Origin: Methanobacteriota archaeon
GTDB lineage: Archaea; Thermoplasmatota; Thermoplasmata; RBG-16-68-12
Assembly: GCA_005878485.1 (NCBI GenBank)
Contig: VBMG01000040.1
Location: 1-50,975 of the forward strand
Direction: 5' to 3'
DNA length: 50,975 nt
Part shown: piece by piece, positions 1,094 to 20,000 of the stretch
How the letters are laid out: the number at the start of each line of letters is the position of its first letter
Numbering within the stretch: position 1 is the stretch's first letter
Made by a program: the position numbers and the translations under genes
Notes under the pieces: model-generated
Told to the model about the DNA's origin: nothing
Seen by the model: only the letters and a program-made list of their open reading frames with translations
Databases searched by the model: none

Positions 1094-2350
1094 TCACCAG
1101 GGAACCCGGAGCCGACCGATGGGTCCCGCGACGGCAATCGAACTTGCCGACGGCAGGAAGTATCTTCGCGCGAGGTTCCGGATGCGCTCCTCGGTCAGCT
1201 CGCCGACGATGTCCGCGTACCGCTCGAGGAAGTCCATCCCGAGCCCGTGGTACTCCATGCGGTGAAGTTCCCCGGCGACCTCGGCATTCCGCTCGAGGGA
1301 CACGACGAGAGAGCCGGTCTGATTCTCCTTCCCATCCCGGACCTCCTCCAAGGAGAAGGGCTCCGTCCGCAGGCGATCCATCTCCGCGCGGATCGATTCG
1401 ATCGCCTTCCCCAGATTCGAGGGGTTCACGCCCGCCGAGATCGTCCACATGCCGCCCGCGGTCCGCGCGTCGAGGTTCGAGAACGCGTAGTAGGCGAGGC
1501 CTTGTTCATCCCGGAGGTTCCTCCCGAGGCGGCCGTACAGGCCGATCCGCCCGAACAGGAGGTTCGCCAGGTTCAGCGCATAGTAGTCCTCGTGACGCCG
1601 GGGGACGCCCGGCGCGCCGATCACGATGTCAACCTGGGACTTGTGGGGCATCGGAATCCGGACGGACCCGGGTCGGTGGGGACGCGGGGGCGGGATCGCC
1701 TCGGCGCCGCCATCGCCGCGGAGGCGGGAGAGCGGCGTCGCAATTCCCTCGTCGATCAGGGCGCGATCGACGTCCCCCGTGACCGCGAGGATGAGCCCCT
1801 CCGGGCCGACGTGGGCCTCGTGGAACGAGACGATGTCCCCCCGCCGGACCCGTTGGACGCGGGATGGATCGCCTTTGGGCTCCCGGCCGTACGGATGGTC
1901 CTTCGGGAAGACGAGCCGGGACACCTCCCGGACGGCGCGGTGGTGCGTGTCGTCCGCTTCGATGCGGAGGTCGTTCTGCAGCTCCGCGCGGATCCGCTCG
2001 ACTTCCTTCGATGGGAACGCCGGCTCGGAGAGGCAATCGACGAGAATCCGGACCGTTTCCGCCGCCGTCTCGCGGGTACACCGCCCTTGGAAGGACAGGA
2101 CCTCGTCCCCGTTCCGGAACTCGAGGGTCGCGCCGATCCCCTCGAGGCGATCCGCGAGCTTCGCGGCGCCCATCCGGCGCGTCCCGCTCAGCAACAACCG
2201 CGACGTGAACTCGGCCAGGCCGAACTCGCTCCCCTCCGCCGCGACCCCGGCGGGCACCGTGCCCCGGAACGCGATGAACGGGTTCGAGGGCAGCGCGACC
2301 GACACGAGGATCGCGCCGTTCTCCAGGACGGTCCGGTCCGGGAGGTTCAC
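1094..2350 (-). CDS. M16 (pitrilysin) family peptidase, non-catalytic subunit-like (no HxxEH)
   Basis: The track ORF 1094..2824 has an R/G/P-rich N-terminal extension that overlaps the upstream gene. An in-frame GTG at 2350 forms a GTGA start/stop overlap with the upstream M16 gene (TGA 2347-2349). From VNLPDRTVLENGAILV the sequence has M16 architecture, but GLAEFTSRLL sits where HxxEH would be. Confidence 0.75.
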   Translation of the reverse strand: MNLPDRTVLENGAILVSVALPSNPFIAFRGTVPAGVAAEGSEFGLAEFTSRLLLSGTRRMGAAKLADRLEGIGATLEFRNGDEVLSFQGRCTRETAAETVRILVDCLSEPAFPSKEVERIRAELQNDLRIEADDTHHRAVREVSRLVFPKDHPYGREPKGDPSRVQRVRRGDIVSFHEAHVGPEGLILAVTGDVDRALIDEGIATPLSRLRGDGGAEAIPPPRPHRPGSVRIPMPHKSQVDIVIGAPGVPRRHEDYYALNLANLLFGRIGLYGRLGRNLRDEQGLAYYAFSNLDARTAGGMWTISAGVNPSNLGKAIESIRAEMDRLRTEPFSLEEVRDGKENQTGSLVVSLERNAEVAGELHRMEYHGLGMDFLERYADIVGELTEERIRNLARRYFLPSASSIAVAGPIGRLRVPW

Positions 2351-3708
2351 CCGGGGACCTCCTGCGCATGGAATCGGACGACGGTCCGGTGCTCCTCGAC
2401 GAGATACCGGCGGGCGGCCGCGCGGACCTGCTCCGGCCGGACTTTCTCGACCTTCGCGAGGAGCGCCTCCGCGAAGTCCCACGCGCCGAGGCCTTCGCCC
2501 GCGCTGAGCAACATGCCTTGGAACGTGACGCCGTCTTGCTCGTACCGCGCCCAGGCGCGGACCTGTTGGTGGGCCCGAGCGAGTTCCGACTTCGGCGGGG
2601 GCGCCCGTTTCAGCTTCTCGATTTCCCGGTCGAGCACGGCCTCGACACGGTCCAGAGAGGCGCCGGGCGCCAGCGTCGCGTTCGCGATGAGCAAGGAGGG
2701 GTCCAGCTTCGACTCGAGGCGGACGCCGACGTCCGTCGCGAGCTTCGCCTCGACGAGGGCCCGATACAGTCGGTTCGATCGGGGCCGCCAGTCTCCCGCC
2801 GCGAACGGGACGAATCCCCGCCACCCTCCGAGGACGGTCGACAGGAGGACGAGCGCGGGCGTGTCCTCGTGGGCCGCGCCGGGGATGTGCCAGCCGACCG
2901 AGAGGAGGTCCGCGGGACCGGGACGTTCGAGGTCGCTCCGCCGCTCGCCGCGTTGCTCCGGCTCCGCGAGGCGAAGGGGGTCCGGCGGCGCCTCCGGCTG
3001 CAGGCGGCCGAACGCCTCGCGGATGTGCTGCATCGCGACGGCCACGTCGAACCCGCCGACGAGGATCAGGGACGCGTTGTTCGGGGCGTAGAACCGGAGG
3101 TAGTGGCGGTACAGCGGGTCGCGGGCGAGGGTCGCGAGGTCCTGCTTATACCCGATCGCCGTCCAATGGTACGGGTGGACGTGGAACGCGAGCCCCCACA
3201 GCTCCTCCTCGACCGCGAAGTCGGGCTGGTTCTCCGCGCCTTCCCGTTCGCTGATCACGACCGTGCGTTCCGCCTCGACCTCTTTCGGGTCGAACGCCGC
3301 GTTGCGCATCCGCTCCGACTCGATCATCAGGGCCGTGTCCAGCGCGGTCGCGGGGATCGTCTCGAAGTACATCGTGTAGTCCGTGTCGGTGAAGGCGTTC
3401 ATCTTGCCGCCGAGGCGGGAGATCAGCTTGTCGATGTCCCCCTTCGCGAGCTTGCCGCCGCCCTTGAACAGCATGTGCTCGACCCAATGGGTGGAGCCGG
3501 TCATGCCGGGGACCTCGTTCCGCGAGCCGATCCGGTAGACGACCCACGTGGACAGGGCCTTCGTGTCCGGGATCGGCCGGAGGATCACCTTCAGGCCGTT
3601 GCCCAGGGTCTCCACGTGGGTGGGCATCTGAGGCGCGGGAACGCGGGCGCGCGATATCAAGTTGCCCGACGCGAACGGAGACGGAAATTCGCCGAGAGGC
3701 TTGCGCAT
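2347..3708 (-). CDS. M16 (pitrilysin) family zinc peptidase, catalytic subunit-like
   Basis: 453-aa ORF. Inverted zincin motif HWVEH within GSTHWVEHMLFKG, and the N-terminal LGNGLKVIL start typical of M16. An alternative ATG at 3627 (MPTHVETLGNG) is equally plausible. Confidence 0.85.
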   Translation of the reverse strand: MRKPLGEFPSPFASGNLISRARVPAPQMPTHVETLGNGLKVILRPIPDTKALSTWVVYRIGSRNEVPGMTGSTHWVEHMLFKGGGKLAKGDIDKLISRLGGKMNAFTDTDYTMYFETIPATALDTALMIESERMRNAAFDPKEVEAERTVVISEREGAENQPDFAVEEELWGLAFHVHPYHWTAIGYKQDLATLARDPLYRHYLRFYAPNNASLILVGGFDVAVAMQHIREAFGRLQPEAPPDPLRLAEPEQRGERRSDLERPGPADLLSVGWHIPGAAHEDTPALVLLSTVLGGWRGFVPFAAGDWRPRSNRLYRALVEAKLATDVGVRLESKLDPSLLIANATLAPGASLDRVEAVLDREIEKLKRAPPPKSELARAHQQVRAWARYEQDGVTFQGMLLSAGEGLGAWDFAEALLAKVEKVRPEQVRAAARRYLVEEHRTVVRFHAQEVPG

Positions 3709-4732
3709 TTATGGGGGACCCGCCGAAACTGTGGTACTCAATTGGAAATGGCCGGGGGACCTTTTGCATTCAGCGCCTTCATTCGTTGGCGAAGGTTCTC
3801 CCGGAACGCTATCACTTTGCGGGGATGGCGCGCAAATTCGCTCGCTGCCCGACCCTGGCGAGTGGCCTTCTTGTGGTCGACCAACGCCAGCATGACCATC
3901 GCGTGACGCCGCTTCACAATAAGATACGGCAGGACCGACAAGAGAAGACGTTCGACCATGCCATCACTCCAAATCAGTTGGTAGGCGTGCCGCCATCCAA
4001 CTCTTGCTGAGGGCTGGTTTGTCATGATTCCTCCAAACCGCCCGCGAATCTCTTCCAGCACGGGCTTGTCGGTGTTCCCGATTGATATTCTTGCACGGTA
4101 CTGAGAGTTACCGTTTGAATCGGTAGACTTTGGAATCATCAAACAACCCTCCGCATCGATGAACCCGGCGAGGTATTTTGATAAGCGCCGCCTCCTGTCT
4201 AGGCGCGCGTTGGGGGACGTGCCACTTCCACGCACAGCCTTGCCCTTCATATTCAACCGGGCTAGACGGTTGTGGAATCGCGCTCGGAATTCCAGTTCTG
4301 CCTCGGACAGAGGAAGGAGGTGACCGCCCGAGTCCCGACTCCGACGGCAAGCTTGGAGGTGTGCATTGAATTCGAGCAGCGCCACGGCTTGTTTCGACTT
4401 CACGCGCAAGTGGCGAACCAGCATCTTCAGCAACTTGGCAGCGGCAGCATTCGTCCAGATCAGCGCGTAGCTCGGTTTCCACGCCGGACGCCTCTGTCCA
4501 ACCGCAGAGAGGGAGCCGCCCCACCTACGCCGAATGGAGACCAGGACGCGACGATCCGTGTTATAGGCGCACAACCGCAGGCAATATTCGGGTGAACGGC
4601 GCCTCCGACGAATCCGCGCCAGTGCCAGGTAGCCTTCGCCGTCCATGAAACCGGCGAGGTACTCGATCGAAACCAACTACAATACACGGAGTGGAGGGGT
4701 AACTAGCTTCGGGCGAGGGATAGGTGAAAGTG
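3709..4732 (-). mobile_element. Putative homing-endonuclease insertion filling the gap between the Pup-like ORF and the M16 genes
   Basis: The LAGLIDADG ORF plus short flanks occupies exactly the space between the TAG stop of the small ORF (4733) and the ATG of the M16 gene (3708). The segment is more AT-rich than its neighbours. I saw no terminal repeats, intron or intein context. Confidence 0.4.
3738..4676 (-). CDS. Free-standing double-motif LAGLIDADG homing endonuclease
   Basis: 312-aa ORF with two LAGLIDADG motifs about 165 aa apart: YLAGFMDGEGY at the N-terminus and YLAGFIDAEGC mid-protein. TTG start at 4676, TGA stop. GC is visibly lower than in the flanking genes. Confidence 0.85.
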   Translation of the reverse strand: MVSIEYLAGFMDGEGYLALARIRRRRRSPEYCLRLCAYNTDRRVLVSIRRRWGGSLSAVGQRRPAWKPSYALIWTNAAAAKLLKMLVRHLRVKSKQAVALLEFNAHLQACRRSRDSGGHLLPLSEAELEFRARFHNRLARLNMKGKAVRGSGTSPNARLDRRRRLSKYLAGFIDAEGCLMIPKSTDSNGNSQYRARISIGNTDKPVLEEIRGRFGGIMTNQPSARVGWRHAYQLIWSDGMVERLLLSVLPYLIVKRRHAMVMLALVDHKKATRQGRAASEFARHPRKVIAFRENLRQRMKALNAKGPPAISN

Positions 4733-4909
4733 CTATGCCCGTCGATCTCCTCCCTGACCCTTCTGGGCTTTAAATTTGGCACTTTCCAGGTCGAGCTCGA
4801 AATCTTCTTCCTTGACTTCGCCAGGGGTGAAGACCTTGCCGGCTTCAAATTCGAGCTTCTTTTCCTGCTTCTTTCGCTTCTTCGGCCGTTCCTCAACTTG
4901 CTGTTGCAT
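4733..4909 (-). CDS. Candidate Pup/UBact-like small protein modifier (58 aa)
   Basis: ATG at 4909 is preceded by GGAGG 7 nt upstream and overlaps the ligase stop codon by 17 nt (translational coupling). Sequence: MQQQVEERPKKRKKQEKKLEFEAGKVFTPGEVKEEDFELDLESAKFKAQKGQGGDRRA. It is charged, predicted disordered, and has an EDF...QKGQ tail resembling the Pup C-terminus. It sits immediately after a PafA/Dop homologue, as pup follows dop in bacteria. The track ORF starts at 4933. Confidence 0.45.
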   Translation of the reverse strand: MQQQVEERPKKRKKQEKKLEFEAGKVFTPGEVKEEDFELDLESAKFKAQKGQGGDRRA

Positions 4910-6188
4910 AGGGTGCCTCCAGTTTTGTGGCATAGGGATCTAGGAGATCGATACGCCTCCGCGTTCCGTCGTTCACGATCAATACTGACCAATCGATCAT
5001 CTCGATATTGAAGGTGTCGCACAGCTCCCGACGAAGGTGTGCTCGGCTGTCATCGGGCGGCTCCTGAATCGCACGCTTGATCGCCTCGTCGTCCGTGATC
5101 CGGTCGAGCAGCCCGGCGCGCTGCCGCTTGTAGAACAAGGATCGATCCATCCCGATTTCCGAGTACTGCTTGCAGGCCATCATCTCGACGTCGGGCCCGG
5201 CCTTCTTCTCGAGCGCCTCTTGGATCGCGTAGTACCGGTCGAGCCACTCGACCCGACGTGCCGCGTCCTTCGATCGGCGGCCTTCGAGGTCGTCCAGGAC
5301 CTCCTCGAGCGTGCGCAGCGCCCGGTGTTCCCACTCGTCCTCGACGAGGGTCTCGATCTTCTCGAGGTAGTACCGCTGCACGTCGATCGGAGAGACGATA
5401 GACCCGTCCTCGAGCTCGACCTTCCACTGCTCGGGATTCCGGATCTCCACGTTGCGCCAGACGTCCTTCACGGGATCCTTGATCCGCGGCACGTCGGCGA
5501 GGGCGTCGGCCTCCATGAGCCGCAGGATCGCGGACGTCGTGAAGTGTCGGAGCATGATCGCGGTCTCGTTCATCAGGGCGTCCCCGACGATCACGTGGAG
5601 GCGGCGCCAGAGGCGTCCGTCCGCGTGCGGCTCGTCCCGCGTGTTCAACAAGCCGGTATCGTGCATCGTCTCCCCGCTGATGACCTGCGACGTGAGGAAG
5701 GCCATCGGCGACAGGACGTACTTCCCGCGGACGATGTCCCCCGCCCCCGTATACACGAACCGCGTCGCGAGGTGCGGCACGAGTTCGCGGATGAACCGGG
5801 CCGGGAACGCGACGTCCCGGGACACGCAGTAGTTCTCGTGGGACCCGTACGATGTGCCGTCCGGGGAGGTGTTGTTCTTGAACGCGTGGATCTTCGTCTC
5901 CCCGGTGTACTTCTCCTCCATGATCCGTCGGAGCCAGTCGAGGATCTTCTCCCCGGCCTTCTCCCAGATCACGACATCGTGAAAGTTCGTCGTCTCCGCG
6001 GTGCTGACCTCGAAATGCCCGACGTCGTAGTAGACGCGCGAGCCGTTCGTGATGAACTCGCCGGCGAGGTGCAGGTCGGAGTCCCGCAGGAGGTCGAGCG
6101 CCATCATGTGCGGATCGAACCCCATCGTGCCCATCTTGCGGCAGTACAGCGTGTACTCGTGCTCGGTCCCCTGGACCATCTTCTTCAT
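4893..6188 (-). CDS. Pup-ligase/deamidase family protein (PafA/Dop homologue)
   Basis: 431-aa ORF carrying the family motifs GTEHEY (N-terminal GxExE), YYDVGHFEVSTAE, YGSHENY and LNTRDEPHADGRLWRRLHVIVGDALMNE. The ATG at 6188 lies 3 nt after the TGA of the upstream ATPase. Confidence 0.85.
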   Translation of the reverse strand: MKKMVQGTEHEYTLYCRKMGTMGFDPHMMALDLLRDSDLHLAGEFITNGSRVYYDVGHFEVSTAETTNFHDVVIWEKAGEKILDWLRRIMEEKYTGETKIHAFKNNTSPDGTSYGSHENYCVSRDVAFPARFIRELVPHLATRFVYTGAGDIVRGKYVLSPMAFLTSQVISGETMHDTGLLNTRDEPHADGRLWRRLHVIVGDALMNETAIMLRHFTTSAILRLMEADALADVPRIKDPVKDVWRNVEIRNPEQWKVELEDGSIVSPIDVQRYYLEKIETLVEDEWEHRALRTLEEVLDDLEGRRSKDAARRVEWLDRYYAIQEALEKKAGPDVEMMACKQYSEIGMDRSLFYKRQRAGLLDRITDDEAIKRAIQEPPDDSRAHLRRELCDTFNIEMIDWSVLIVNDGTRRRIDLLDPYATKLEAPYATAS

Positions 6189-6191
6189 GCG

Positions 6192-7751
6192 TCACCCGAC
6201 CATCGGGTCCGCACCGGTCCGGAAGACCTCCCGCTGGCGCTTCTCGTAGACGTACATCTCCGTGATCGCGTGCTCCTTACTCTCCTCGTCGATCGCCATC
6301 TCGAGGTCCTTGAGGGTGAGGCCCTCCTTCTTCCGGTCGGCCTTCTTGAGGGCGATGACCCGCTTCACGAAGTTCTTCTTCGCGGTCGTGACGATCGCCT
6401 CGATGATCGCGCCGGAGATGATGTCCTTCCGCTTCACGGTCTTGATCGCCTCTTTTGCTTCCGTGTCGAGCTTGACCTTGACCCACTTGTTTTCGCCGTA
6501 CAGCTCATCGAGCACGTACCGGCGGAGCGCCTCGATCGCTTCCTTGTGCCCACCGTACGTCTCTTCGAGGCTCGCGGCCGCAGGGAGGTCCTCGCTCAGG
6601 TAGATGCGGAGGACCTCCTCCGCCGCCTTCCGGTCCGGGCGCGGGATGTCGATGATTTCGTCGAACCGGCCGGGTCGGAGCAGCGCCGGGTCCACGAGGT
6701 CCGCCCGGTTCGTCGCCCCGATCACGAAGACATCGTGCAGTTCGACGAGTCCGTCCATCTCGCTGAGGATCTGGGCGATGATGTTCTTGTGGACGCCGGA
6801 CGTGTCCATCATGCCGCGGACCGTGAAGAGGGCCTCGATCTCATCGAAGAACACGATGCTCGGCTTCTTCTCGTGCGCCTGGCGGAAGATCTCCTTGATG
6901 ATCCGCTCGCTCTCCCCGACCCACTTCGACAGGACGTCCGCGATGCTGACGTTGAAGAACGTCATGTCGTTCTCCGTCGCGATCGCTTTCACGAGCAACG
7001 TCTTCCCACACCCGGGCGGGCCGTACAAGAGGATGCCGCGCGGCGCCTCGAGGGAGATCTGTTGGAACAGTTTCGCCTCTTGGTACGGGAGCACGACGAC
7101 GTCCTTGATCCGCTCGATCGCCTCCGCGAGCCCCCCGATCTGCGCGTACTTCACGTTCGGCTTCTCCCCCAGGAGGAGCGACTTGACCTCGAGGTTCGGG
7201 AGGACATCGAGCACCTCCATCGTCGGCGGGAGGACGCCGATCTGGAATCCGGGCTTCAGCTTCTTGTAGACGTTCTTGTCGCAATCGATCAGGCGTTTCT
7301 CCATGTCCCCTTCGACCGAGATGACGAGCTTGCCGTCCAGCATGTCGACGACTTTCGCGATGACGCCTTCGTTCCGGACCGCGCTGCCCTCGACGATCGC
7401 GTACGTCTGCGGGTGGACCCAGACGTACTGGCCTACGCCGAGCTGGGACTTGTCCACGAGCCCGGTTGAGACCTTCAGCAGTTCCGTCGCCCGCGCCACG
7501 ACCACTTGGTTTCCGTCGAGGTCGGGCCCCTCCTTGCGAACGACGTACGCGTAGAGGAGCGGAGGCTGTTTGATCTTGTTGAACTTGTCCTCGTAGGCCT
7601 TCAGCCGGTACTCCCGCTCCTCAATTTCGTACCGGAACGAGTGCAGGTCCCGTTCGTACTGGCGACGGAGCCGGTCCATCTTCTCTTCGAACTCGTCCCG
7701 AACTTCTTCCGCCGACTTGGACACCTTCCCGTCGCTTTCGTCGCTTACCAT
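6192..7751 (-). CDS. ARC/Mpa-like AAA+ ATPase (N-terminal coiled coil, double-OB-sized linker, single AAA module)
   Basis: Start chosen at ATG 7751 (MVSDESDGK), with GGTGAT 6 nt upstream; the track ORF extends to 7871. It has a coiled-coil N-terminus, about 150 aa before the AAA module, Walker A GPPGCGKT, Walker B IVFFDEIE and ATNRADLVDPALLRPGRFD. The Cys-containing P-loop and FFDE resemble Mpa/ARC more than PAN. The C-terminus ...RTGADPMVG lacks a penultimate Tyr. Confidence 0.85.
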   Translation of the reverse strand: MVSDESDGKVSKSAEEVRDEFEEKMDRLRRQYERDLHSFRYEIEEREYRLKAYEDKFNKIKQPPLLYAYVVRKEGPDLDGNQVVVARATELLKVSTGLVDKSQLGVGQYVWVHPQTYAIVEGSAVRNEGVIAKVVDMLDGKLVISVEGDMEKRLIDCDKNVYKKLKPGFQIGVLPPTMEVLDVLPNLEVKSLLLGEKPNVKYAQIGGLAEAIERIKDVVVLPYQEAKLFQQISLEAPRGILLYGPPGCGKTLLVKAIATENDMTFFNVSIADVLSKWVGESERIIKEIFRQAHEKKPSIVFFDEIEALFTVRGMMDTSGVHKNIIAQILSEMDGLVELHDVFVIGATNRADLVDPALLRPGRFDEIIDIPRPDRKAAEEVLRIYLSEDLPAAASLEETYGGHKEAIEALRRYVLDELYGENKWVKVKLDTEAKEAIKTVKRKDIISGAIIEAIVTTAKKNFVKRVIALKKADRKKEGLTLKDLEMAIDEESKEHAITEMYVYEKRQREVFRTGADPMVG

Positions 7752-7875
7752 TTGTGAATCACCGCGCGCGTCCGCCCACGGTTCGACCGGAACTCGAGGG
7801 CATCCGCTCTGTGGACGCGTGTCTGTGGAACAAGAGACTGCCTCGTCCCATCCCTTGTTAGAAAGTGGCATCCCG

Positions 7876-7883
7876 AATTAAAG
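7876..7883 (-). promoter_or_regulatory. Possible TATA box for the ATPase-ligase-modifier operon
   Basis: The minus strand reads AAAAGCTTTAATTCGG. This would give a ~100-nt leader to ATG 7751. It is the only AT-rich box in the 373-bp spacer. Confidence 0.25.
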
Positions 7884-8124
7884 CTTTTGTTATCGGTATT
7901 AGAGATGCGACAATCCCGCTCTCTCCTCCCGTACACGTTCGTTGCAAACATCGTTCGAGCGTCAGGACGATCCACGTGTGCGCGGAGTCTTGTTGTAGCG
8001 AACGACCGGTATGCCCGCGGGCTCGCGCGGAGTAGAACACACTTCGGACCCTTCGCGGTCGCGGCACGGCCGATGGTCCAAACCGGGTAACGCCTCCGTG
8101 CGACCCATGGAAAGCCGAAAGCGG

Positions 8125-9273
8125 TCACCGGATTCCGTGAATGGGGAACACGAGCCGCCGGAGTTCCTCGACCGTCCGCTTGACCTGGCGTGGGACGTGC
8201 GCGTCTTCGTCGACCTTGGTGTGGTCCCGCAGCGCCTTTTCCGCGGGGACGGTCCCGACGAGTCGGTTCCCCTCTCGTAACCAATTCGTGGGCAGCGCAT
8301 CGTCCAAGCGGAGGCCCACCATCGTGGCGAAGAGGACCGTCCATACGCGGGGGACGGCGGTGACGTCATATCCGCCTCCGCCCACCGCAATCCACCGGCC
8401 CCCGCAGAGTTCCGATGAGAGCCCGTCCAGGATCCGTCCCACGGCCTCGTAGGTCTCCGTGGTCAACATTAGGTGCGTGAGCGGATCGAGATAGTGTGCG
8501 TCGGCTCCGAGTTGGCTGCAGATGAGGTCCGGCCGGAAGGCCCGTGCGATCGGCGGAACGACCTCTTGAAACGCGTAGAGATACGAGACGTCGCGAGTAT
8601 AGGGCGGGAGCGGCACGTTCACGGCGAAGCCTTTCCCATCGCCGGCGCCGATTTCGTCCGTGAAACCGGTCCCCGGGAAGAGGTAGTGGCCGTCCTCGTG
8701 CAGGGAAATCGTGAGGACGCGGGGGTCCTCATAGAAAACCGCCTGGACCCCATCCCCGTGGTGCGCGTCGATGTCGACATACAAAATCCGCCGGACCTGG
8801 TGCTGATCGAGCAGGGACCGGATCCCGATTGCGATGTCGTTGAAGATGCAGAACCCGGATGCACGGTCGGGCATCGCATGGTGGAACCCGCCTCCGAGGT
8901 TGAAGGCCCGTAGCCGGCGTCCCGACGCCACCTCGGAACACGCCCGCAGGGTTGCACCCACTTGGAGGGCCGACGCCTCGTACATCCCTGCAAAGACGGG
9001 ATCGTCGACCGTCCCGAGACCATGGACTTCCGAGGAGCCGTGCGGATCCGCCCCGAGCTCCCGCACGGTGGCCACGTACTCCGGCCGATGAACGGTGAGG
9101 ATGTCCGCCTCGGCCGCGGGACTCGGCCGGAGCTCCTCGGCGCCTCGATCACCGAGGAGCCCGTACCCCGCGATGAGGTCGCGAGCGAGCTTCACCCGGA
9201 TCTCTCGCAACGCGTGGGCGGGGCCAAAATCGTACTTCAGAAAATCATCGTGGTAGAGGAGCGCGGGTCGCAC
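8125..9273 (-). CDS. Histone deacetylase / acetoin utilisation (AcuC) family deacetylase
   Basis: HDAC motifs GGGFHHA, DIDAHHGDG and GGGGY are present. Start set at in-frame GTG 9273, which lies 31 nt downstream of a CTTTAAG box (leaderless geometry). The track ORF to 10170 overlaps the neighbouring gene and is R-rich. Confidence 0.85.
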   Translation of the reverse strand: MRPALLYHDDFLKYDFGPAHALREIRVKLARDLIAGYGLLGDRGAEELRPSPAAEADILTVHRPEYVATVRELGADPHGSSEVHGLGTVDDPVFAGMYEASALQVGATLRACSEVASGRRLRAFNLGGGFHHAMPDRASGFCIFNDIAIGIRSLLDQHQVRRILYVDIDAHHGDGVQAVFYEDPRVLTISLHEDGHYLFPGTGFTDEIGAGDGKGFAVNVPLPPYTRDVSYLYAFQEVVPPIARAFRPDLICSQLGADAHYLDPLTHLMLTTETYEAVGRILDGLSSELCGGRWIAVGGGGYDVTAVPRVWTVLFATMVGLRLDDALPTNWLREGNRLVGTVPAEKALRDHTKVDEDAHVPRQVKRTVEELRRLVFPIHGIR

Positions 9274-9350: not shown

Positions 9351-12300
9351 TCAACGGGCAGAAACCGCCCGCACGGGACGCGTCGCGGCGGCGACCGCGT
9401 AGCCGCCCTGGATCAGCTTCTTGATGTACGGGGCCAAGACCCTCGCGAGGCCCATGTCTCCATCCCAATCCTCGAGCTGGTCCCATTGGTGGTCCTCCAT
9501 GTCGCGGATGCAGCGTTCGATCTGCTCCGTCCACGACTCCGTGCCGTCCCCTTCGATTCGCGCCGCGAGGACGAGCCATTTCCCTCGCCCGATTAGGATA
9601 TGCATCTGGCCGACTGTCATCTCGTTCAGCTCGCCCAGGTCGTCGCCCCGTAAGGCGTCCTTGACGAACGCCTGCACGGCGGTGAGCATGCCGCTCAGGA
9701 TGTCCGTGTCCACGTCCGGGCGGAGCCGGCGAGTCTCGTGTTTGATCAGGAGCCCGTCTTTGGCATTGAGCAAGAACACGTCCTCGATGATCGCGTCCTG
9801 TGACCTGGAGGCGGCCTTGACGGACGGCCTCGAGGGTTCCCTCGAACGGCGACGCACGAGGAAGAACAGCGTTCCGGCGACCCCCGCGGCGGCAATCACG
9901 AAGAGCCACCAATAGCTCGCGAGGAATCCTTGGGCGGTCGCGAACTGGAATGTCTTCGACTGGACCATCGTGTTCCCGGCCAGGTCCCGCGCGCTCGTAT
10001 CGACGACCACGAAGTAGGTCGTCCCAGACTGGAGCTCCCGGGTCGGCACGAACGTCACGCTGCGGGAGTCGGCGCTCCACTGGAAGGACCCATCGACCGC
10101 CGGCGAAATCGAGAACGCTTGCTCCACCGAGGCGCGGTCCATCGCTTCCGTGAATGTAATCCGGATCCACGGAGTCGTGTTCGTGTCCGCGCCAACCGGC
10201 CGCACGTCCGTCACGGACGGTGGCGTGATGTCGATCATGGTCCAGGTATCATTGCCGGCGGGAGCGGGCTCGACGTTGCCCGCGCGGTCCGTCGCGATCG
10301 AGCGGAACGCGACCACGCCCTGCCCGCTCGCCGTGAAGGTACCCGTGGTCGCGGCCGTGCCGACGAGCCAATTCGTCCAGCCCGCGCCGACATCGTACAG
10401 GACCGTGTACGTCGCGATGTCCGTGGTGCCGGCCGCCTGGCTCCAGGAAACCGCGAACTGAAGCCGGTTCTCGAAGGCCGGCAAGGAGGTCATGATCGAA
10501 TTGGGCGGGGTCACGTCCACGATCGTCCACGAGTCGTTTCCGGCAGGCGGCGCCTCGACGTTGCCCGCGCGGTCCGTCGCGATCGAGCGGAATTCATAAG
10601 TGTGGCCGTCCTGTCCCGTGAACGTGGCGGATGTCCCCGTCGACACAAGCCAATCCGACCAGCTTCCGCCATTGTCGCGCACCACAACCCGGTAGCTCGC
10701 GATGTCCAGGGTGTCGAACTGGGGTCCCCACGATACCATAAATCCGAGGGACGTCTCGTACGTCGGCAGCGGGAGCGTGTGGGAGAACGGGGCGATCGTG
10801 TCGACGATCGTCCAGGTGTCGTTTCCAGTCGGTGCGACCTCGACGTTGCCCGCGCGGTCCGTCGCGATCGACCGGAACGCGATGGGGCCCTGGTTGCCGC
10901 TGTTGAACGTCGCCGAGGTGGCGGTCGTCCCGACGAGCCAGTTCGTCCACCCCGTGCCCAAGTTGTATTGAATCGTATATGTGGCGATGTCCGTCACGCC
11001 CGCGTCCGGAGCCCACGAGACGAGGAACGAAGCCGAATTCTGATATGCGCTGAGCGCGTTCACGTGGGACCCCGGCCGGACCGTGTCGACCGTCGTCCAC
11101 GTATTGTTCGCGAACGGTCCGGACTGCACGTTGCCGGCGAGGTCGTCCGCCGTTGTCGCGAACTCGTAAACGCCGTCTGCGGAGGCTGTGAAGGTGAATT
11201 GGCCGAGGTTTCCCGCCGGTTGTGTCGCGTATGGAGACCAACCACCGCCCCCGGTCCGCACCCACAACGTGATGCTCCTCAGGCCGGTCCCATTGCCGTC
11301 CGAGGCCGTGTAACCAATCGTGAACGTTTGCGTGTTCTCGTACGTCGGGAGCGAGGTCGCCGCGGAGGTCGGCGCATCGCGGTCCACCATGACGAACGGC
11401 TCCGTGTGACTCGTGCTCATGTCGACGAACCGCGGATCACTCGCGAACGAGTAACTCGAGTACGTCACGGTGACCCGCGTCACGTTGTCGATCGGCAAAG
11501 GAGAGTCGATGTACACCCGGTCCGTCACGAGAATCCACGGTTGGATGCCACTCGGGGACGACCGATCCCAGATGGGTGATCCGTTGTCCTCGACGAGGAT
11601 GTGCGCCCCGGCGACCGGCGTCAGACCGTTCGGCCAGAGCGCGTCAACCTCGAGGAAGTTTTGGACCGTCAAATTGCCGGCGGCCATCACGGCCAATTTC
11701 GTGAACGGCGTGTTCACCGCGAAGCCTTCCGTGTAGTTGTCCACGAAGAACTCGTAGGATCCGACGGACGACAGGGATGCGTTTTCGACCGTGAAGCGGA
11801 TGGTCAAGGACCGATTGCCGACGAGGTAGTACCCATTCGCGTAGGACGCTTGCACGGGCAGACCCGCGCCGGGGGCTCCTTTCGCCACCCCCGAAATCGT
11901 GTCGCCGAGGGAAACGCCGTACCTCACGAGTCCGGCGACGATGCCGCTCGCGTCCCCACCGCGCCCCCCATTGGTTGGACCGAGGGAATCTCCTCCGCGT
12001 CCCCCTTGCAGCGTGTAGACCTGGTTCGTGTCGAGGGTCGGGGCGAGGTACAGTGCGGCGATCCCCCAAGCGCTCCCTCCATTCCCGCCGAACTTGCTTC
12101 CGATTCCCCCTACGCCACCCGTGACCGTCTGGATCAAGTTGAAGCTCATTGCCGTCGCGTTGAATCGACCGTCGTTGTAACCGATCGAGAGGACGCCCGT
12201 CGCATTTCCTCCGTAACCACCATGGGCGCCGCGGCCACCGTCTCCGCCGGTCAACGTGTCCATCGTGCTCGATCCTACACTCGCAGACCCGACGACGGAG

Positions 12301-13679
12301 GCTAGCAGGAACGCCGTCGCGCCGCCGCCCGTACCGCCGTTTCCGCCTCCGCCCGCGGTCACGCCCCCATTTCCCCCGAGGCCGCCGTGAAGGATTGAGA
12401 CGGTATTCCCGCCCGCATCCGCATTTTCAGCCGTGATGAAGAAGAGACCGTCCGCGTCGCCGCCGGCGCCGCCGTTGCCGCTCGAGGTGCTTCCCGTCGC
12501 TCCGGCCCCTCCGGCGCCTCCCGTTACCCCGTTGATCCCGTTCGTGTGTAGCTGTGTGAAGCCCGTCGTAACGGCCGCTTCGATCGCCGCGGCCGTGCCG
12601 CCGCTTCCGCCCGAACCCCCGTTCGTTGTCGTCGCGCCGCCGCCGCCGCTTCCGCCGGCTCCGCCCTGAAGATTCGTGATGGTATTGCCTGAGATGTACA
12701 CCCCCGAAGTCATCGCGACGACGATGCCCGCGACGGAACCGCCGTTGCCGCCACGGCCTCCCGTCCCGCCGGGATTCGTTTGGCCGTCGCCACCCCGCCC
12801 GCCGATCGCGGTGTCGACCGTGTTCGTCGTGATTGACGCCGATGGCGCGGCGTTCACGTAGATACCGAGGGCGAAGGCGCCGTCACGACCCGGGGCTCCG
12901 GGCGACAAGCCGTTGCCTCCGTTCGCTCCGCGGACGCCGGTGATCGTGTTCCCATCGATCGCCGCAGTGGCACCCGCGTTGACCAGGATTCCCACCGCGA
13001 AAACGCCGCTCACGTTCGTGATCGTGTTGCCCGAAATCGTCGGCGCGCTGGGTTGTTCGACCTGGATACCGAGACCCGTGCCGTTAATCGCGTTGCCGGC
13101 AATCTGAGCGTCGGAGGCGTTCGCGTAGATCCCGAGACTTGAAGCCCGTTTGATGACATTGCTCGTGACGAAGGCCGTGGACCGCACGAGGACGAAACCG
13201 GCCCCCGCTTGGAGGATCGTGTTGCTCGAGAGCGAAAGCGAGCTCGCCGTCGCGGTAACTGCGCGATCGACCCGATCGAAAGTAGACCATGAGATCGAGC
13301 CGGAGGAGCTCGCATTGAACTGGATGCCGCCCCACGTGATCGGCGAGCCCGTGTTGTTCGCGGTAAAGATGATCGCCCTGGTGGCGGTCCCGTCGGCGAC
13401 GAGCGAGCCCTCGATGAAGAGGTGGACTCCTGGATCGAACTTGACCGTCGTCCCGGGAAGGATGGTGAGCGTCGCAGGAGCGCGGACGGTGACATGGTAC
13501 GTTGCGACGTATATCGTATCGCTGATGCCCCACGTCGTATCCGTGGTGATGAGCCCCCGCACGTACGTGGTTGCGGTCGCCGTTGGCGCCGTCCATAGGA
13601 ACGCGGCGGTCGCGGAAGCAAGCAGCACCCAGACGATCATGAAAGTTCGGCCCAAGGTCGTCGTGGGGTGGGCACGCAT
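9351..13679 (-). CDS. Large single-pass surface protein: signal/anchor, parallel beta-helix repeats, Gly-rich repeats, 4 tandem Ig-like domains, SbsA-Ig-like domain, TM, cytoplasmic roadblock/longin-like module
   Basis: N-terminal hydrophobic segment FMIVWVLLASATAAFLW. PbH1-like repeats (IAGNAINGTGLGI, ISGNTITNV, IDGNTITGV). Periodic GGxGGxG blocks. Four ~95-aa repeats each ending in SIATDRAGNVE. TM YWWLFVIAAAGVAGTLFFLV followed by RRRSR. The C-terminal ~150 aa begins VFLLNAKDGLLIKH. A TATA-like ATAATATAG at 13744-13752 sits too close to GTG 13739, so ATG 13679 (GGAG upstream) is preferred. Confidence 0.8.
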   Translation of the reverse strand: MRAHPTTTLGRTFMIVWVLLASATAAFLWTAPTATATTYVRGLITTDTTWGISDTIYVATYHVTVRAPATLTILPGTTVKFDPGVHLFIEGSLVADGTATRAIIFTANNTGSPITWGGIQFNASSSGSISWSTFDRVDRAVTATASSLSLSSNTILQAGAGFVLVRSTAFVTSNVIKRASSLGIYANASDAQIAGNAINGTGLGIQVEQPSAPTISGNTITNVSGVFAVGILVNAGATAAIDGNTITGVRGANGGNGLSPGAPGRDGAFALGIYVNAAPSASITTNTVDTAIGGRGGDGQTNPGGTGGRGGNGGSVAGIVVAMTSGVYISGNTITNLQGGAGGSGGGGATTTNGGSGGSGGTAAAIEAAVTTGFTQLHTNGINGVTGGAGGAGATGSTSSGNGGAGGDADGLFFITAENADAGGNTVSILHGGLGGNGGVTAGGGGNGGTGGGATAFLLASVVGSASVGSSTMDTLTGGDGGRGAHGGYGGNATGVLSIGYNDGRFNATAMSFNLIQTVTGGVGGIGSKFGGNGGSAWGIAALYLAPTLDTNQVYTLQGGRGGDSLGPTNGGRGGDASGIVAGLVRYGVSLGDTISGVAKGAPGAGLPVQASYANGYYLVGNRSLTIRFTVENASLSSVGSYEFFVDNYTEGFAVNTPFTKLAVMAAGNLTVQNFLEVDALWPNGLTPVAGAHILVEDNGSPIWDRSSPSGIQPWILVTDRVYIDSPLPIDNVTRVTVTYSSYSFASDPRFVDMSTSHTEPFVMVDRDAPTSAATSLPTYENTQTFTIGYTASDGNGTGLRSITLWVRTGGGGWSPYATQPAGNLGQFTFTASADGVYEFATTADDLAGNVQSGPFANNTWTTVDTVRPGSHVNALSAYQNSASFLVSWAPDAGVTDIATYTIQYNLGTGWTNWLVGTTATSATFNSGNQGPIAFRSIATDRAGNVEVAPTGNDTWTIVDTIAPFSHTLPLPTYETSLGFMVSWGPQFDTLDIASYRVVVRDNGGSWSDWLVSTGTSATFTGQDGHTYEFRSIATDRAGNVEAPPAGNDSWTIVDVTPPNSIMTSLPAFENRLQFAVSWSQAAGTTDIATYTVLYDVGAGWTNWLVGTAATTGTFTASGQGVVAFRSIATDRAGNVEPAPAGNDTWTMIDITPPSVTDVRPVGADTNTTPWIRITFTEAMDRASVEQAFSISPAVDGSFQWSADSRSVTFVPTRELQSGTTYFVVVDTSARDLAGNTMVQSKTFQFATAQGFLASYWWLFVIAAAGVAGTLFFLVRRRSREPSRPSVKAASRSQDAIIEDVFLLNAKDGLLIKHETRRLRPDVDTDILSGMLTAVQAFVKDALRGDDLGELNEMTVGQMHILIGRGKWLVLAARIEGDGTESWTEQIERCIRDMEDHQWDQLEDWDGDMGLARVLAPYIKKLIQGGYAVAAATRPVRAVSAR
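10233..11384 (-). repeat. Four tandem coding repeats of ~285 bp (95-aa Ig-like domains)
   Basis: The core CGACGTTGCCCGCGCGGTCCGTCGCGATCGA recurs at 10271, 10556 and 10841, exactly 285 bp apart. A diverged fourth copy lies near 11120. Confidence 0.85.
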
Positions 13680-14097
13680 GTGTGACACGGACTCCGCAGC
13701 GAGGGTTTGCCCCGCCCTAGTCTCGCCCCGTTTCCACACGACGCTATATTATCCAAAGGATGCCGTTATCGCAGGTGATATCGAATTCGTGTCGGAATAA
13801 CGGCCCGAGCAGAGGGTGACGCGACAACCTTCAAGGTGTCGTGAAGGCTTGCGCGGTCGGTGGCCTCTCGCGCTCGATGCAATCTTCTCCGCGTCCTCCA
13901 TCGCCATCGTTGGCGCATCCCGACACCGCGGAAAAATCGGATCGACCTGAACCCGGTTATCGCGCTCGACGAGGACCTCGGCTATCGCACTGTCGACGCC
14001 CGGATGTCCTGGAACTCCCCGGGCCTAACCAGACGACATCGACGCCGGCCGCGCAACGCTTGTAGCCTTGGAACGCTATCCAGGGCAGGGAAGCCGC

Positions 14098-17047: not shown

Positions 17048-20000
17048 ATGAGGCCCGCGACGGCGCTGCTGCTCGTCTTCGTGCTCATCGCGACCGCTGG
17101 CCTCGCGGTGGCGGAACAGAAACTGCTGGATCCCTTCGCTGCGTTCCGCGGTCCCGATGGCTCCCTTCACATTCCCGGTTCCGCCCTAACGAACAATCTG
17201 CTCCGGGCGTTGTTCGGACCCAGGCCGGATCCGAACGCTCCGATCCGGCTCGCGGAGCGGGTGCCGTCGCCCTATCCGACCCTTGCAATCCGAATCGTCG
17301 AGATGGAATTTCCACAGCAGCCATCGTTTCGGTTTGTCCTTCGAATTCAGGATATCATTGGTTCGGTCAACCATGGCCTCAGCGCCGCCGCAAATGCGAT
17401 CACCGCGATAGGCCGCGCTGCGATCGCTGCTTTCTTCAATTTCCTGACGTCGGATGCGGCTGCCGCCGTGAACGTGGACACGACAACGGTTGCGGACGTG
17501 TTCCCTGCCGCCACCACCTGCACGACATCGCAGTCCGCGACGGCTGCGGATAACGGCGTTCTCGTGATGCTATCGGAACGTGGGACGACCACGTTCGCCT
17601 CCGTCACGTATGGATCGACAAGCCTCACCTTGGTCGCAGGCACAGCGGCGAACGGTGGGACTGTTGTACGAACGGAAATCTGGGGGTTCACGGGGACCCT
17701 TCCCGGAGGGCTTCAGACGATGACGGCGACCCTCTCGGGAGGCCAGACGGCGAAGATGAGCTGTGCGACGATCCTGCTACAGGGCGTGAGCCCGACTGGC
17801 TCGTTCATCCGGGGGACGAACAATGCCGCGAATTCGACGAACGCAAGCGTCACGCTTCTGGGGACGGTAGCGGTCGGAAATCTCGCCTTCGCCGTCGCCG
17901 TGCTCCAGCAGACCAACGGCGGGGCTCAGCCGACGGCGGTCACCGGTACAGGAGCTACGGCTACGGACCTGTACGGGGTCGCGGTCGGCCACTGCACGAC
18001 AGGGGCCTCCGCTGCATCGAACGAATGTGCCGCCGGGTCGGATATCCCGAACCCGGGCACCGCAATCACTTGGACGAACGCGGCCACGCAGTGGGTGGTC
18101 TCCGCCGTCGAGGTCGTGGCAGCTCCGCCGTGCGGAAACGGGAGCGGATTGTGCTACCGGATTGGGAACGGCGGCGCCTGGAATAGCGCCTCCAACTGGT
18201 CGAACTCCTCCGGAGGAGCCCCGTGCAGCTGCACTCCCGCGGCGACCGATGTCGCCGTCTTCAACGCGAATCCGACTGGAACGGTTACGCTGGCCGCAGC
18301 GACGACAATCGGCGGCATCGACATGACCGGATTCACGGGGACGCTCGACACGACCGCAGCGAACAGTTGGGCACTAACCGTGAACGGCAACTTCCTAGTC
18401 CAAGGGACATTCCTGGCTGAGAATTCGGCAGTGTCCGTCAGCGGCAACGTCGGCATCGTCTCCGCGGGAACGATCGTCAATCTCGGCGGATCGACGTGGA
18501 CCGTGAATGGGACCTGGACGAACGCTTCGACCTCATCGTCCTGGGTTGCGGGGACGAGCACGGTGACGATTGCCGATGCCGGAAATGCGACCCTAACCTT
18601 CGCCGCACTCACCGGGGGGACGAACGAGTTCAATAACATGACTCTCGACTCGATCGCAATTGGCGGTGCCGTGTATACGATGGCCATCAATGCGGTCCGC
18701 ATCGGAGCGGTCTTGACCGTCCGAAATTCAACGGCCGGCGCCACCGGCCCAACGATTTTGGACACATCGGGCTCCAACCTCGCGGTTACCGCTGGCAGTC
18801 TCGCCCTTTCCCTGCTCGGGAGTGTATCGGCAAACGGGTCTACGGTAACGATCAATGGGAACGTGACTGTCGGGGCGGCGGGCGCCTACTCGACCATGGG
18901 GACCTCCGTGTGGACCGTCACGGGCACGTGGACGAACGCCTCGACGTCCGCATCCTGGAGTGCCGGGACGAGCACGGTCACGTTCACCAGCGCGACGGGC
19001 GGGACAATGACGTTCGCGGGTTCGAACCTCGCCGGGAGCGAGTTCTACAACGTCGCATTTGCGTCTTCGGCGGCCTCCGCACAGACGTTCACGATGTCGA
19101 CGCGGGGATTGAATTGGGGCGGAACCCTCACCGTCTCGGATGCCTCGTCCTCGACCCAACTGGCCACGGCGAACCTGTCCCTAACCGGCGGAGGCCTGGT
19201 CATCGGCAACGGGGGCATCTTGACGGCCAACGCTTCGTCGGCATCCGTCTCGAGTGTGTCGATGACGGGAGGCACGAGCGGCACAATCACCTTGACCACG
19301 GGTACCGTCACTGACTCCGGAAACTGGGACACGAGCGGGGCCGGTTCGGTCTTCACGAAGGGGACCAGCACGGTCACGATGACGGGCGTGAGCAACATCG
19401 CGGTGCGAAATGCGAGCAACAACTTCAACAACCTGACCATCTCCACCGCCGGTGCCGTCACCCAGACGGGCCTCGTGGATGTGTCCGGGACGCTCGGTGT
19501 GAATGCGGGCGCGACCCTGGCGACCGGCACACAAACGCTCACCGTCGGCGTTCTCGCGGCAAACATGGCCGGGGGGATCACGGCGGGCCCCTCGGGCACG
19601 AAGACGATTGGGGGAAACGTGAGTATCGCCGCGGCGGGCTTCTTCAATTTCGGCGGGGCAACCTGGAATTTCAGCGGCGCCTGGACGAACGCCTCGACGA
19701 GCGCGTCGTGGGCACCGGGTACCGGGAACGTGGTGTTCCGCGATGCGGCAAGTCAGACGATGACGTTCAAAGCGTCCGGGACAGAGTTCCCGAATCTGAC
19801 GCTCGACACGACCGCCGTCGCAGGGATCACGTACACGATGGCAACGAATCCGCTCAATTCCGGAGGCACGCTCACGATCCAGAACAGCGTGGTCGGTCCC
19901 ACCGGGAACACGATCCTCACGACCGGCGCGAGCGGCCTCGGGATCACGGCGGCGGGCATCACGATTGGCATCAACGGAACGCTGACCGCGAGTTCCTCGA

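Follow-up and report, generated by a model that had tools for sequence, protein, structure and literature searches.

In the literature, pupylation figures as the answer of bacteria to ubiquitin; it is described in Actinobacteria and Nitrospirae, UBact and sporadic homologues are found in a few Gram-negative phyla, and archaea are thought to use SAMP/Urm1-type modifiers. Only bacterial phyla are named for the Pup system in an analysis from 2008, a survey from 2020 and a review from 2025 (PMC2588565, PMC7947786, PMC12288473), and the full-text literature that was searched, which does not cover every journal, yielded no paper on an archaeal Pup-like system. Here we analyse positions 1 to 50,975 of contig VBMG01000040.1 from a Methanobacteriota archaeon (assembly GCA_005878485.1), a soil member of the class Thermoplasmata; this whole stretch of 50,975 nucleotides is called the window. 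Three of its minus-strand genes, at 4733-7751, encode in this order an ATPase resembling ARC/Mpa, a single enzyme of the Pup_ligase family and a small charged protein that is a candidate tag, and we consider it probable that they form a functional tagging and unfolding module of the Pup/UBact type in an archaeon, expressed as one operon from a BRE (B recognition element)/TATA promoter. Homologues are already visible in databases under automatic labels, the enzyme as 'proteasome accessory factor PafA2 family protein [Thermoplasmata archaeon]' and the ATPase as 'proteasome-associated ATPase', so that their presence itself is not new. What appears to be new is the reading of the archaeal genes as a system, the single mosaic enzyme, the tag family with its C-terminal extension, and the non-canonical tail of the ATPase.

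With the actinobacterial Pup-proteasome system, the archaeal locus shares the PF03136 enzyme with its catalytic residues, a pup_AAA-type ATPase, the gene order, and a small charged tag in which a putatively reactive Glu or Gln alternates after a Gly. It differs in its archaeal host, in having one enzyme rather than a Dop/PafA pair, and in the lack of linked prcBA genes. Moreover, the enzyme is a mosaic without the Dop loop and without the PafA alpha-helix insert, the tag falls outside the Pup models, has a Lys-rich N-terminus where that of Pup is Gly/Asp-rich and carries a six-residue tail, and the ATPase ends in DPMVG instead of GQYL, the C-terminal proteasome-docking motif of Mpa. UBact systems are represented here by a bacterial locus (L058) with the order Mpa-Dop-UBact-PrcB-PrcA-PafA, whose Dop protein cluster has a member named Armatimonadota. 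Its first three genes are colinear with the archaeal ATPase-enzyme-tag order, and its UBact (Pfam PF20513) ends in ...RRYRQRSGE, similar to the archaeal ...RSAE, ...RSGQ and ...RKGQ and to ...FKAQKGQ in the window; however, the archaeal tags miss PF20513, the window tag is extended, and the bacterial loci keep both paralogues and the proteasome genes.

Two further groups of described proteins have to be compared. The single-copy PafA/Dop homologues of Planctomycetes also occur as one family member per locus, are about equidistant from Dop and PafA, and have no linked proteasome genes. For those of Plesiocystis and Rhodopirellula, an insert that spans the membrane and linkage to a membrane protein have been described (Iyer et al., 2008, PMC2588565), and the Planctomycetes homologues show a partial alignment to the Dop loop (Hecht et al., 2020, PMC7947786), whereas the archaeal enzymes are of soluble size (431 aa), loop-less and linked to an ARC-like ATPase. 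With the archaeal PAN/Cdc48-20S machinery and its SAMP/Urm1 modifiers the locus has in common the host domain, presumably the 20S core, and an AAA+ unfoldase with predicted coiled coil and OB region. On the contrary, its candidate tag is a short charged peptide served by an enzyme of the glutamine-synthetase fold, while SAMPs are beta-grasp proteins with E1-like activation and a C-terminal Gly-Gly.

The locus and its archaeal context

The arrangement of the three genes, which the original prediction had described as tightly packed on the minus strand, can be read directly from the sequence, and the observation is confirmed. ATPase and enzyme genes meet at GTC GGG TGA CGC ATG, where a 3-nt spacer lies between the ATPase stop (TGA 6192-6194) and the enzyme start (ATG 6188), and the tag gene, beginning at ATG 4909, overlaps the enzyme stop (4893) by 17 nt. 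The predicted GGAGG upstream of this ATG is present with a 6-nt spacer, and its location inside the enzyme gene suggests translational coupling of the tag gene. All of the quoted motifs (GTEHEY, YYDVGHFEVSTAE, YGSHENY, LNTRDEPHAD, RRLHVIVGD, GPPGCGKT and FFDEIE) recur in the translations. A start of the ATPase at ATG 7751 is supported by 10 loci, in which the ATG is invariant and a Shine-Dalgarno-like GGTGAT is kept just upstream, in agreement with independent gene calls of 519 aa, and the tag length of 58 aa is also that of the JGI and ENA gene calls.

Several features speak for the archaeal nature of the contig. GatD and GatE, which the original prediction had pointed out in the window, score above their NCBIfam cut-offs, and the archaeal promoter geometry that it had proposed finds its counterpart upstream of the ATPase gene in the conserved element ACAAAAGCTTTAAT, which from its fit to the established archaeal consensus is a probable archaeal BRE/TATA promoter. 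The leader that precedes the ATPase start (about 100 nt, window 7752-7856) opens with an invariant GGGATGGGA; its RNA fold is weak (covariation term -0.17 kcal/mol), and no Rfam match was found in the window. The closest relatives of the enzyme are named Thermoplasmata, Methanobacteriota or 'Euryarchaeota RBG_16_68_12'. When GTDB species representatives were scanned, 49 loci were obtained, all from metagenome-assembled genomes (MAGs) of Thermoplasmata type and some on contigs of 0.39-1.13 Mb; the three-gene block occurs in all 49 related genomes found, and the order and spacing of ATPase, enzyme and small open reading frame (ORF) are the same in every locus with enough flank. On a contig of 788 kb the block lies at most 10 kb from genes for archease, diphthamide synthase, ribosomal protein L10e/L16 and a mevalonate-pathway protein. 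The tetranucleotide profile of the first 10 kb agrees with that of 40-50 kb (r = 0.969), and that of the operon falls inside the spread of the window (r = 0.895, 10th percentile). A chimeric or bacterial contig, a risk raised with the original prediction, is thus ruled out by composition, by GatD/GatE, by the promoter, and by the same synteny on Thermoplasmata contigs of 0.5-1.1 Mb.

Beyond these relatives, four other archaeal-looking lineages carry the three-gene block. The first (L052, ligase about 40% identical, GC content 0.43) has it beside genes for TYW2/Trm5 and geranylgeranyl reductase, the second (L057, GC 0.37) is its sister with a ligase 56% identical to that of L052, the third is a Nitrososphaeria MAG (L054/L055/L060), and in the fourth (L063) the block stands beside a gene of diphthamide synthase type. 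In the profile scan of GTDB representatives, the search for further archaeal lineages returned only the Nitrososphaeria MAG and two NC10 bacteria.

The Pup_ligase-family enzyme

The 431-aa enzyme matches Pfam PF03136 Pup_ligase with 294.6 bits (cut-off 25; E = 1.8e-87) over profile positions 69-438 of 441, and among NCBIfam models Dop (251.6 bits) and PafA (251.3 bits) tie, with no other family matched. Its AlphaFold2 (AF2) model, with a predicted local distance difference test (pLDDT) of 92, was compared with known structures by Foldseek, giving template-modelling (TM) scores of 0.90 to Dop (7oxy) and 0.87 to PafA (4bjr), whereas glutamate-cysteine ligases and glutamine synthetases do not exceed 0.51. 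The fold is glutamine-synthetase-like with an extra C-terminal domain, and nearer to Dop/PafA than to these two groups. Because of the Pfam and NCBIfam matches and the Foldseek scores, the protein belongs to the PafA/Dop family, as the original prediction had it, and an identity as glutamate-cysteine ligase or glutamine synthetase is ruled out. The family comprises gamma-glutamyl-amine ligases and amidases, which target the Glu/Gln side chain at the end of Pup. GTEHE in the enzyme is the GhExE ATP motif, and residues E9, E11, Y53, D55, E60, H117 and H198, invariant or nearly so in 108 archaeal sequences, align with Glu8, Glu10, Tyr92, Asp94, Glu99, His155 and His241 of Dop, whose Mg/ATP ligands and catalytic Asp are named in PMC8599861. 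Judged from this alignment, the metal, ATP and catalytic residues are intact.

Within the family, neither Dop nor PafA fits, as equivalog scores, loop, motif mosaic and tree all indicate. The enzyme stays under the equivalog cut-offs of Dop TIGR03688 (251.6 vs 492.3 bits) and of PafA TIGR03686 (251.3 vs 551.3 bits). The discriminating features were taken from the table of Hecht et al. (2020, PMC7947786) and from alignments to Dop and PafA structures. The Dop loop, which spans about 40 residues and separates the GhExE from the NGxRxYxD motif, is absent from the enzyme, and from residue 7 onwards the enzyme aligns collinearly with PafA; the spacing from GhExE to NGxR is 41 residues, compared to 38-52 in PafA and 72-124 in most Dop-type proteins. 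Around the catalytic Asp, the enzyme reads YYDVG-HFEVSTAE (YYDVGHFEVSTAE) where PafA has YLDVGSHPEYATAE and Dop YVDHAHPEYSTPE. Here the enzyme resembles PafA in V and G and Dop in the Ser of STA, and it lacks the Ser insertion; the PafA signature DVGSHPEYATAE is not found at this place in the enzyme. In the alpha-loop, the seven-residue H-x-W-E part of the PafA helix segment H-x-W-E-G...SSATTRS is absent, and the loop has the length of that of Dop and is modelled as strand and coil, not helix. Further positions are PafA-like at 30 (Ala), 45 (Phe), 64 (Ala) and 399 (Asp) and Dop-like at 41-42 (Leu-Ala), 62 (Ser) and 173 (Glu), and these mosaic positions are invariant or nearly so in the 108 archaeal sequences.

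The relatives of the enzyme are set apart in the same way. Among 1.84 billion cluster representatives there is a sharp gap below the archaeal enzymes, the next matches reaching at most 41% identity and 216 bits and consisting of bacterial proteins, some of Dop type and some of PafA type. In a neighbour-joining tree of 114 sequences the archaeal enzymes form one bipartition (97/100 bootstraps), apart from the Dop and the PafA clusters; the tree is unrooted and gives no direction, ancestral or derived and transferred, for the archaeal clade. Taken together, the sequences form a separate mosaic archaeal clade that is orthologous to neither PafA nor Dop.

It has also to be asked whether a partner enzyme is encoded nearby. 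By tblastn over 610 kb, comprising flanks of 6-10 kb per locus, neither a second Pup_ligase gene nor 20S proteasome genes were found in the window or in any archaeal flank, and the original prediction of one ligase/deamidase paralogue and no 20S genes in the window is upheld. Both bacterial comparison loci (L058 and L061), in contrast, have Dop, PrcB, PrcA and PafA. This result bears on the alternative that the archaeal enzyme is a Dop-like deamidase and depupylase only, with conjugation left to a separate PafA-like ligase encoded elsewhere, in an ordinary Pup/UBact pathway of two enzymes whose genes have become unlinked. Such a division of labour would agree with the dop position of the gene in the mpa-dop-pup order, with the slightly greater nearness to Dop by phmmer (190 vs 155 bits) and by fold, with the Dop length and non-helical model of the alpha-loop, and with the deamidation that Q-form tags need. 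Nevertheless we regard it as improbable, given the missing Dop loop, the agreement with PafA in residues adjoining the catalytic Asp (DVG) and in those at 30, 45, 64 and 399, the lack of a second homologue within 6-10 kb of any archaeal locus and in the window, and the bipartition of the archaeal sequences outside the Dop clade.

The small charged protein

The product of the third gene consists of 58 residues, about half of them charged, with a Lys-rich N-terminus, an invariant EFEAGKVF core and an acidic segment, and across the Thermoplasmata loci it ends in F[KR]AQKG[E/Q]GGDRR[ATS]. The protein is conserved at the amino acid level and is under purifying selection, the ratio of nonsynonymous to synonymous differences (pN/pS) being 0.16 (pN 0.107, pS 0.685; 1225 pairs from 50 loci). 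As with bacterial pup and UBact, its gene lies directly downstream of the Dop-like gene, an arrangement seen in the window and in every locus whose flank is long enough.

Residue 52, which follows a Gly, aligns with the position at which the sister-lineage tags and the L058 UBact end, and it is the putative site of conjugation. The sister-lineage tags end in ...LFHRKARDGE (L052), ...YNRKSRKGQ (L057), ...LVRARSGQ (L063) and ...ALYRARSAE (Nitrososphaeria MAG), so that a C-terminal Gly followed by Glu or Gln is found in the first three and nearly in the fourth; in L054 the small ORF is convergent. In the 50 loci residue 52 is Glu in 35 and Gln in 15, and genomes with 97.7% identical ligases differ in its state; no convincing enzyme residue co-varies with it. 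Alternation between PupE and PupQ is known in actinobacteria (PMC8599861). In the Thermoplasmata clade the protein continues past this residue, the window tag ending in ...AKFKAQKGQ-GGDRRA, and GGDR is invariant in 19 aligned representative tags and kept across the Thermoplasmata loci. In one relative (L056, ligase 59% identical, GC 0.62) the tag ends in ...RFSARKGQGGDRSGNK, and its version of the extension is GGDRSGNK, listed as nine-residue. The tags of L052, L054, L057 and L063 have no such extension.

Homology of the protein to Pup or UBact could not be detected by hidden Markov models or profiles (Pfam, NCBIfam, hhalign), and PF20513 was matched by none of 19 tag sequences at E values up to 10. 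Of the original prediction of a Pup/UBact-like ORF, therefore, the conserved small protein and its UBact-like C-terminal motif stand, but a detectable relationship does not, and the C-terminal extension comes in addition; judged by its sequence, the protein is best regarded as representing a new family, the C-terminal motif of which resembles that of UBact. We nonetheless assign it the role of a putative tag because of the strict three-gene linkage, the coupling with a gamma-glutamyl-type ligase and the E/Q alternation. The same facts of linkage, coupling and alternation at one position leave very little room for the alternative that the protein is an adaptor or regulator, or that it matures to ...KGEGG for an E1-like enzyme of the SAMP/UbaA type, the Pup_ligase homologue acting on another substrate. 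This alternative could draw on the lack of significant Pup/UBact similarity and on the Thermoplasmata clade, where the reactive-looking residue is internal and the tail starts with GG; however, the sister-lineage tags end exactly at G/A-E/Q without GG, and a protein of 58 residues, about half charged, bears no sign of a beta-grasp fold, and we rate it as very improbable.

Downstream of the operon lie two peptidase genes of the M16 (insulinase/pitrilysin) type (2347-3708 and about 1094-2369, minus strand), whose products are candidate processors of the tail. The pair is linked only in the closer clade, with ligases at least 72% identical; distant Thermoplasmata loci with the GGDRRx tail have genes for a GNAT acetyltransferase and an enoyl-CoA hydratase instead. 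This restricted linkage weakens the case for the M16 peptidases as the dedicated tail-processing protease.

The ATPase and the proposed pathway

The ATPase is laid out as a long N-terminal helix, a beta-rich OB region and one AAA module, with Walker A (GPPGCGKT), Walker B (FFDEIE) and pore loop (KWVG) intact. The best NCBIfam model is TIGR03689 pup_AAA (Mpa/ARC), with 352 bits over model positions 24-482 of 512, compared to 262-271 bits for the PAN models (best 270.6, cut-off 500), and Mpa structures align with the protein in a single stretch of 230 bits. By this best family match the ATPase is Mpa/ARC-like rather than PAN-like, and it also differs from PAN in having no HbYX motif. The original prediction had given it a coiled coil and room for two OB domains. 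The weak AF2 model (pLDDT 58) places a helix at residues 14-59, predicted to be a coiled coil, then two beta-rich stretches (pLDDT <50) ahead of the AAA module, and the approximately 140 residues between helix and module are a Mpa-like spacing. Pfam detects AAA and Prot_ATP_ID_OB_C, the latter being the only OB domain found. The prediction is thus supported in part, the helix and the spacing agreeing with it while Pfam gives OB_C only and the model is poor, and the presence of two OB domains is plausible.

The C-terminus of the ATPase is DPMVG, invariant in 31/31 Thermoplasmata loci, and in other lineages it is GGMFG (two) or, in single loci, DPMVR, LVEYQ and DIYHG. The invariance of the tail suggests a docking function, and hence that DPMVG may serve for docking on a partner ring. 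Corynebacterium pupylation is reported to work without a proteasome, and the archaeal module could likewise apply the same tagging chemistry independently of the proteasome, the ATPase unfolding or disassembling tagged proteins or complexes with no hand-over to the 20S core. The C-terminal DPMVG, or GGMFG in two other lineages, in place of HbYX or GQYL is in favour of this, as are the 20S genes unlinked in every archaeal locus, in contrast to the bacterial L058 and L061. We consider it unlikely, though, given the invariant AAA+ tail and the resemblance of M-F-G and M-V-G to a degenerate hydrophobic-aromatic-X motif. Moreover, all archaea encode 20S proteasomes (PMC12288473), and linkage of 20S genes would not be expected if these genes were ancestral and the module a later addition.

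In the pathway that we prefer, tagging followed by unfolding, the highly charged and probably disordered 58-aa protein would be the tag. The enzyme would activate the gamma-carboxyl of the Gly-Glu residue at position 52 with ATP and join it to lysines of target proteins, a conjugation that we infer from the sequences. The same enzyme would handle the Gln tags of about 30% of the genomes, by deamidation or by direct use, both via the same acyl-phosphate intermediate. A promiscuous single-enzyme ancestor of Dop and PafA has been proposed, and an engineered Dop/PafA mosaic pupylated, from which the authors inferred direct use of PupQ (Hecht et al., 2020, PMC7947786). Because of this engineered precedent, the natural mosaic and the lack of a second paralogue in 610 kb, a single enzyme competent for both E and Q tags is conceivable, and we advance its dual deamidase and ligase activity tentatively. 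The GGDRRx tail would most likely be cut off before ligation, the tag thereby being a precursor as ubiquitin is, or else ligation may occur at the internal Glu, the chemistry using its side chain; processing of a pro-tag is in our estimate possible, short of probable. The ARC/Mpa-like ring would capture tagged proteins through its N-terminal coiled coil, unfold them and, as the most probable outcome, feed them to the host 20S proteasome encoded elsewhere, a delivery step that is likewise put forward with reserve. It is doubtful that all of the bolder elements hold jointly, namely a bifunctional enzyme as a living state like the Dop/PafA ancestor, the first pro-protein among Pup-type tags, and M-phi-G docking on the 20S core.

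A number of observations weigh against this pathway. The tag has no Pfam or NCBIfam match at E up to 10 and no PDB relative; hhalign aligned only its C-terminal 12 residues to the L058 UBact, at E = 0.075 and a probability of 0.75%, and found nothing against M. tuberculosis Pup. The putative reactive residue of the window tag is internal and not a C-terminal G-E/Q end, and no processing protease is conserved beside the operon. In the enzyme, the Dop-like alpha-loop (length, strand and coil) has to be counted here, given that in bacteria this state accompanies hydrolase and not ligase activity (PMC7947786), and a second, distant paralogue may exist elsewhere in the genomes, the searched flanks covering only 6-10 kb. 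As for the ATPase, it scores under the TIGR03689 equivalog cut-off (352 vs 504.75 bits), its AF2 model (pLDDT 58) is too poor for a fold search or a count of OB domains, and neither HbYX nor GQYL stands at its C-terminus, which has no penultimate Tyr, so that docking on the 20S core is conjectural.

If the tagging reading is true, pupylation-like tagging was not a purely bacterial invention, and the module in soil and sediment Thermoplasmata and in other archaeal-looking lineages extends this chemistry to a second domain of life. A minimal version with one enzyme bears on the evolution of the Dop/PafA pair, and it raises the question of how a Mpa-like ring that has none of the recognised docking motifs cooperates with the 20S proteasome of an archaeon. 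The conserved extension of the tag would imply a maturation step that is not known for Pup and is familiar only from ubiquitin-like proteins. All three genes are short, soluble-looking and easy to synthesise.

Feature coordinates and neighbouring genes

Table 1. Positions in the window of the operon, its signals and the adjoining homing-endonuclease gene
Feature	Position	Strand	Basis or remark
BRE/TATA element ACAAAAGCTTTAAT	7876..7889	-	nearly invariant in 10 loci, flanks variable
Conserved GGGATGGGA, about 26 nt past BRE/TATA	7845-7853	-	locus comparison
ARC/Mpa-like AAA+ ATPase, 519 aa	6192..7751	-	ORF call; farthest ATG extends the ORF to 7871
Single Pup_ligase-family enzyme, 431 aa	4893..6188	-	ORF call and Pfam
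Ribosome-binding site of tag gene, GGAGG	4916..4920	-	within the 3' end of the enzyme gene; direct sequence reading
Candidate tag protein, 58 aa	4733..4909	-	conserved ATG 4909; ORF extends to 4933
Putative conjugation residue, codon 52 (CAG, Gln)	4754..4756	-	aligned with last residue of sister-lineage tags and UBact
C-terminal extension GGDRRA, six codons after residue 52	4736..4753	-	Thermoplasmata clade only
Free-standing double-motif LAGLIDADG homing-endonuclease gene	3738..4676	-	Pfam LAGLIDADG_1 and LAGLIDADG_3; 57 nt past tag gene

The homing-endonuclease gene next to the tag gene is intact (about 310-330 aa), decayed or absent among loci L001-L051, the gap ranging from -17 to 141 nt. 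Its product is 41-72% identical where the neighbouring genes are 85-95% identical, and the tetranucleotide profile of the gene ranks within the lowest 1% of the window. Rather than belonging to the tagging system, the gene is probably a mobile passenger, and it looks like an element cycling at one intergenic site, distant loci included.

On the other side of the operon, directly upstream of the ATPase gene, a gene of the histone-deacetylase family (class I/II type, lysine deacetylase; about 8125-9270, minus strand) is kept in nearly all Thermoplasmata loci (L006-L051), even in those with only 50% identity. The tag gene is followed by a GNAT acetyltransferase gene in three distant loci. The proximity of lysine acetylation enzymes to an operon of putative lysine-directed tagging may be due to chance synteny or may be functional.

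Further upstream, a 1462-aa protein encoded at 9351-13739 (minus strand) has NosD-type beta-helix repeats, a Big_5 Ig-like domain and a C-terminal membrane anchor; it is syntenic upstream of the deacetylase gene in many loci and is probably a surface protein. A single ORF of 3848 aa at 17048-28594 (plus strand), with a good coding signal (GC content at third codon positions 0.79) and no Pfam match at E <= 1e-5, coincides with a region of high AT skew (0.3-0.4) over 24-28 kb and may encode a giant surface or repeat protein. Lastly, by Pfam annotation, positions 1-700 of the sister-lineage locus L052 hold a gene for an ATPase of the T2SSE/FlaI type with an intein that carries a LAGLIDADG domain.

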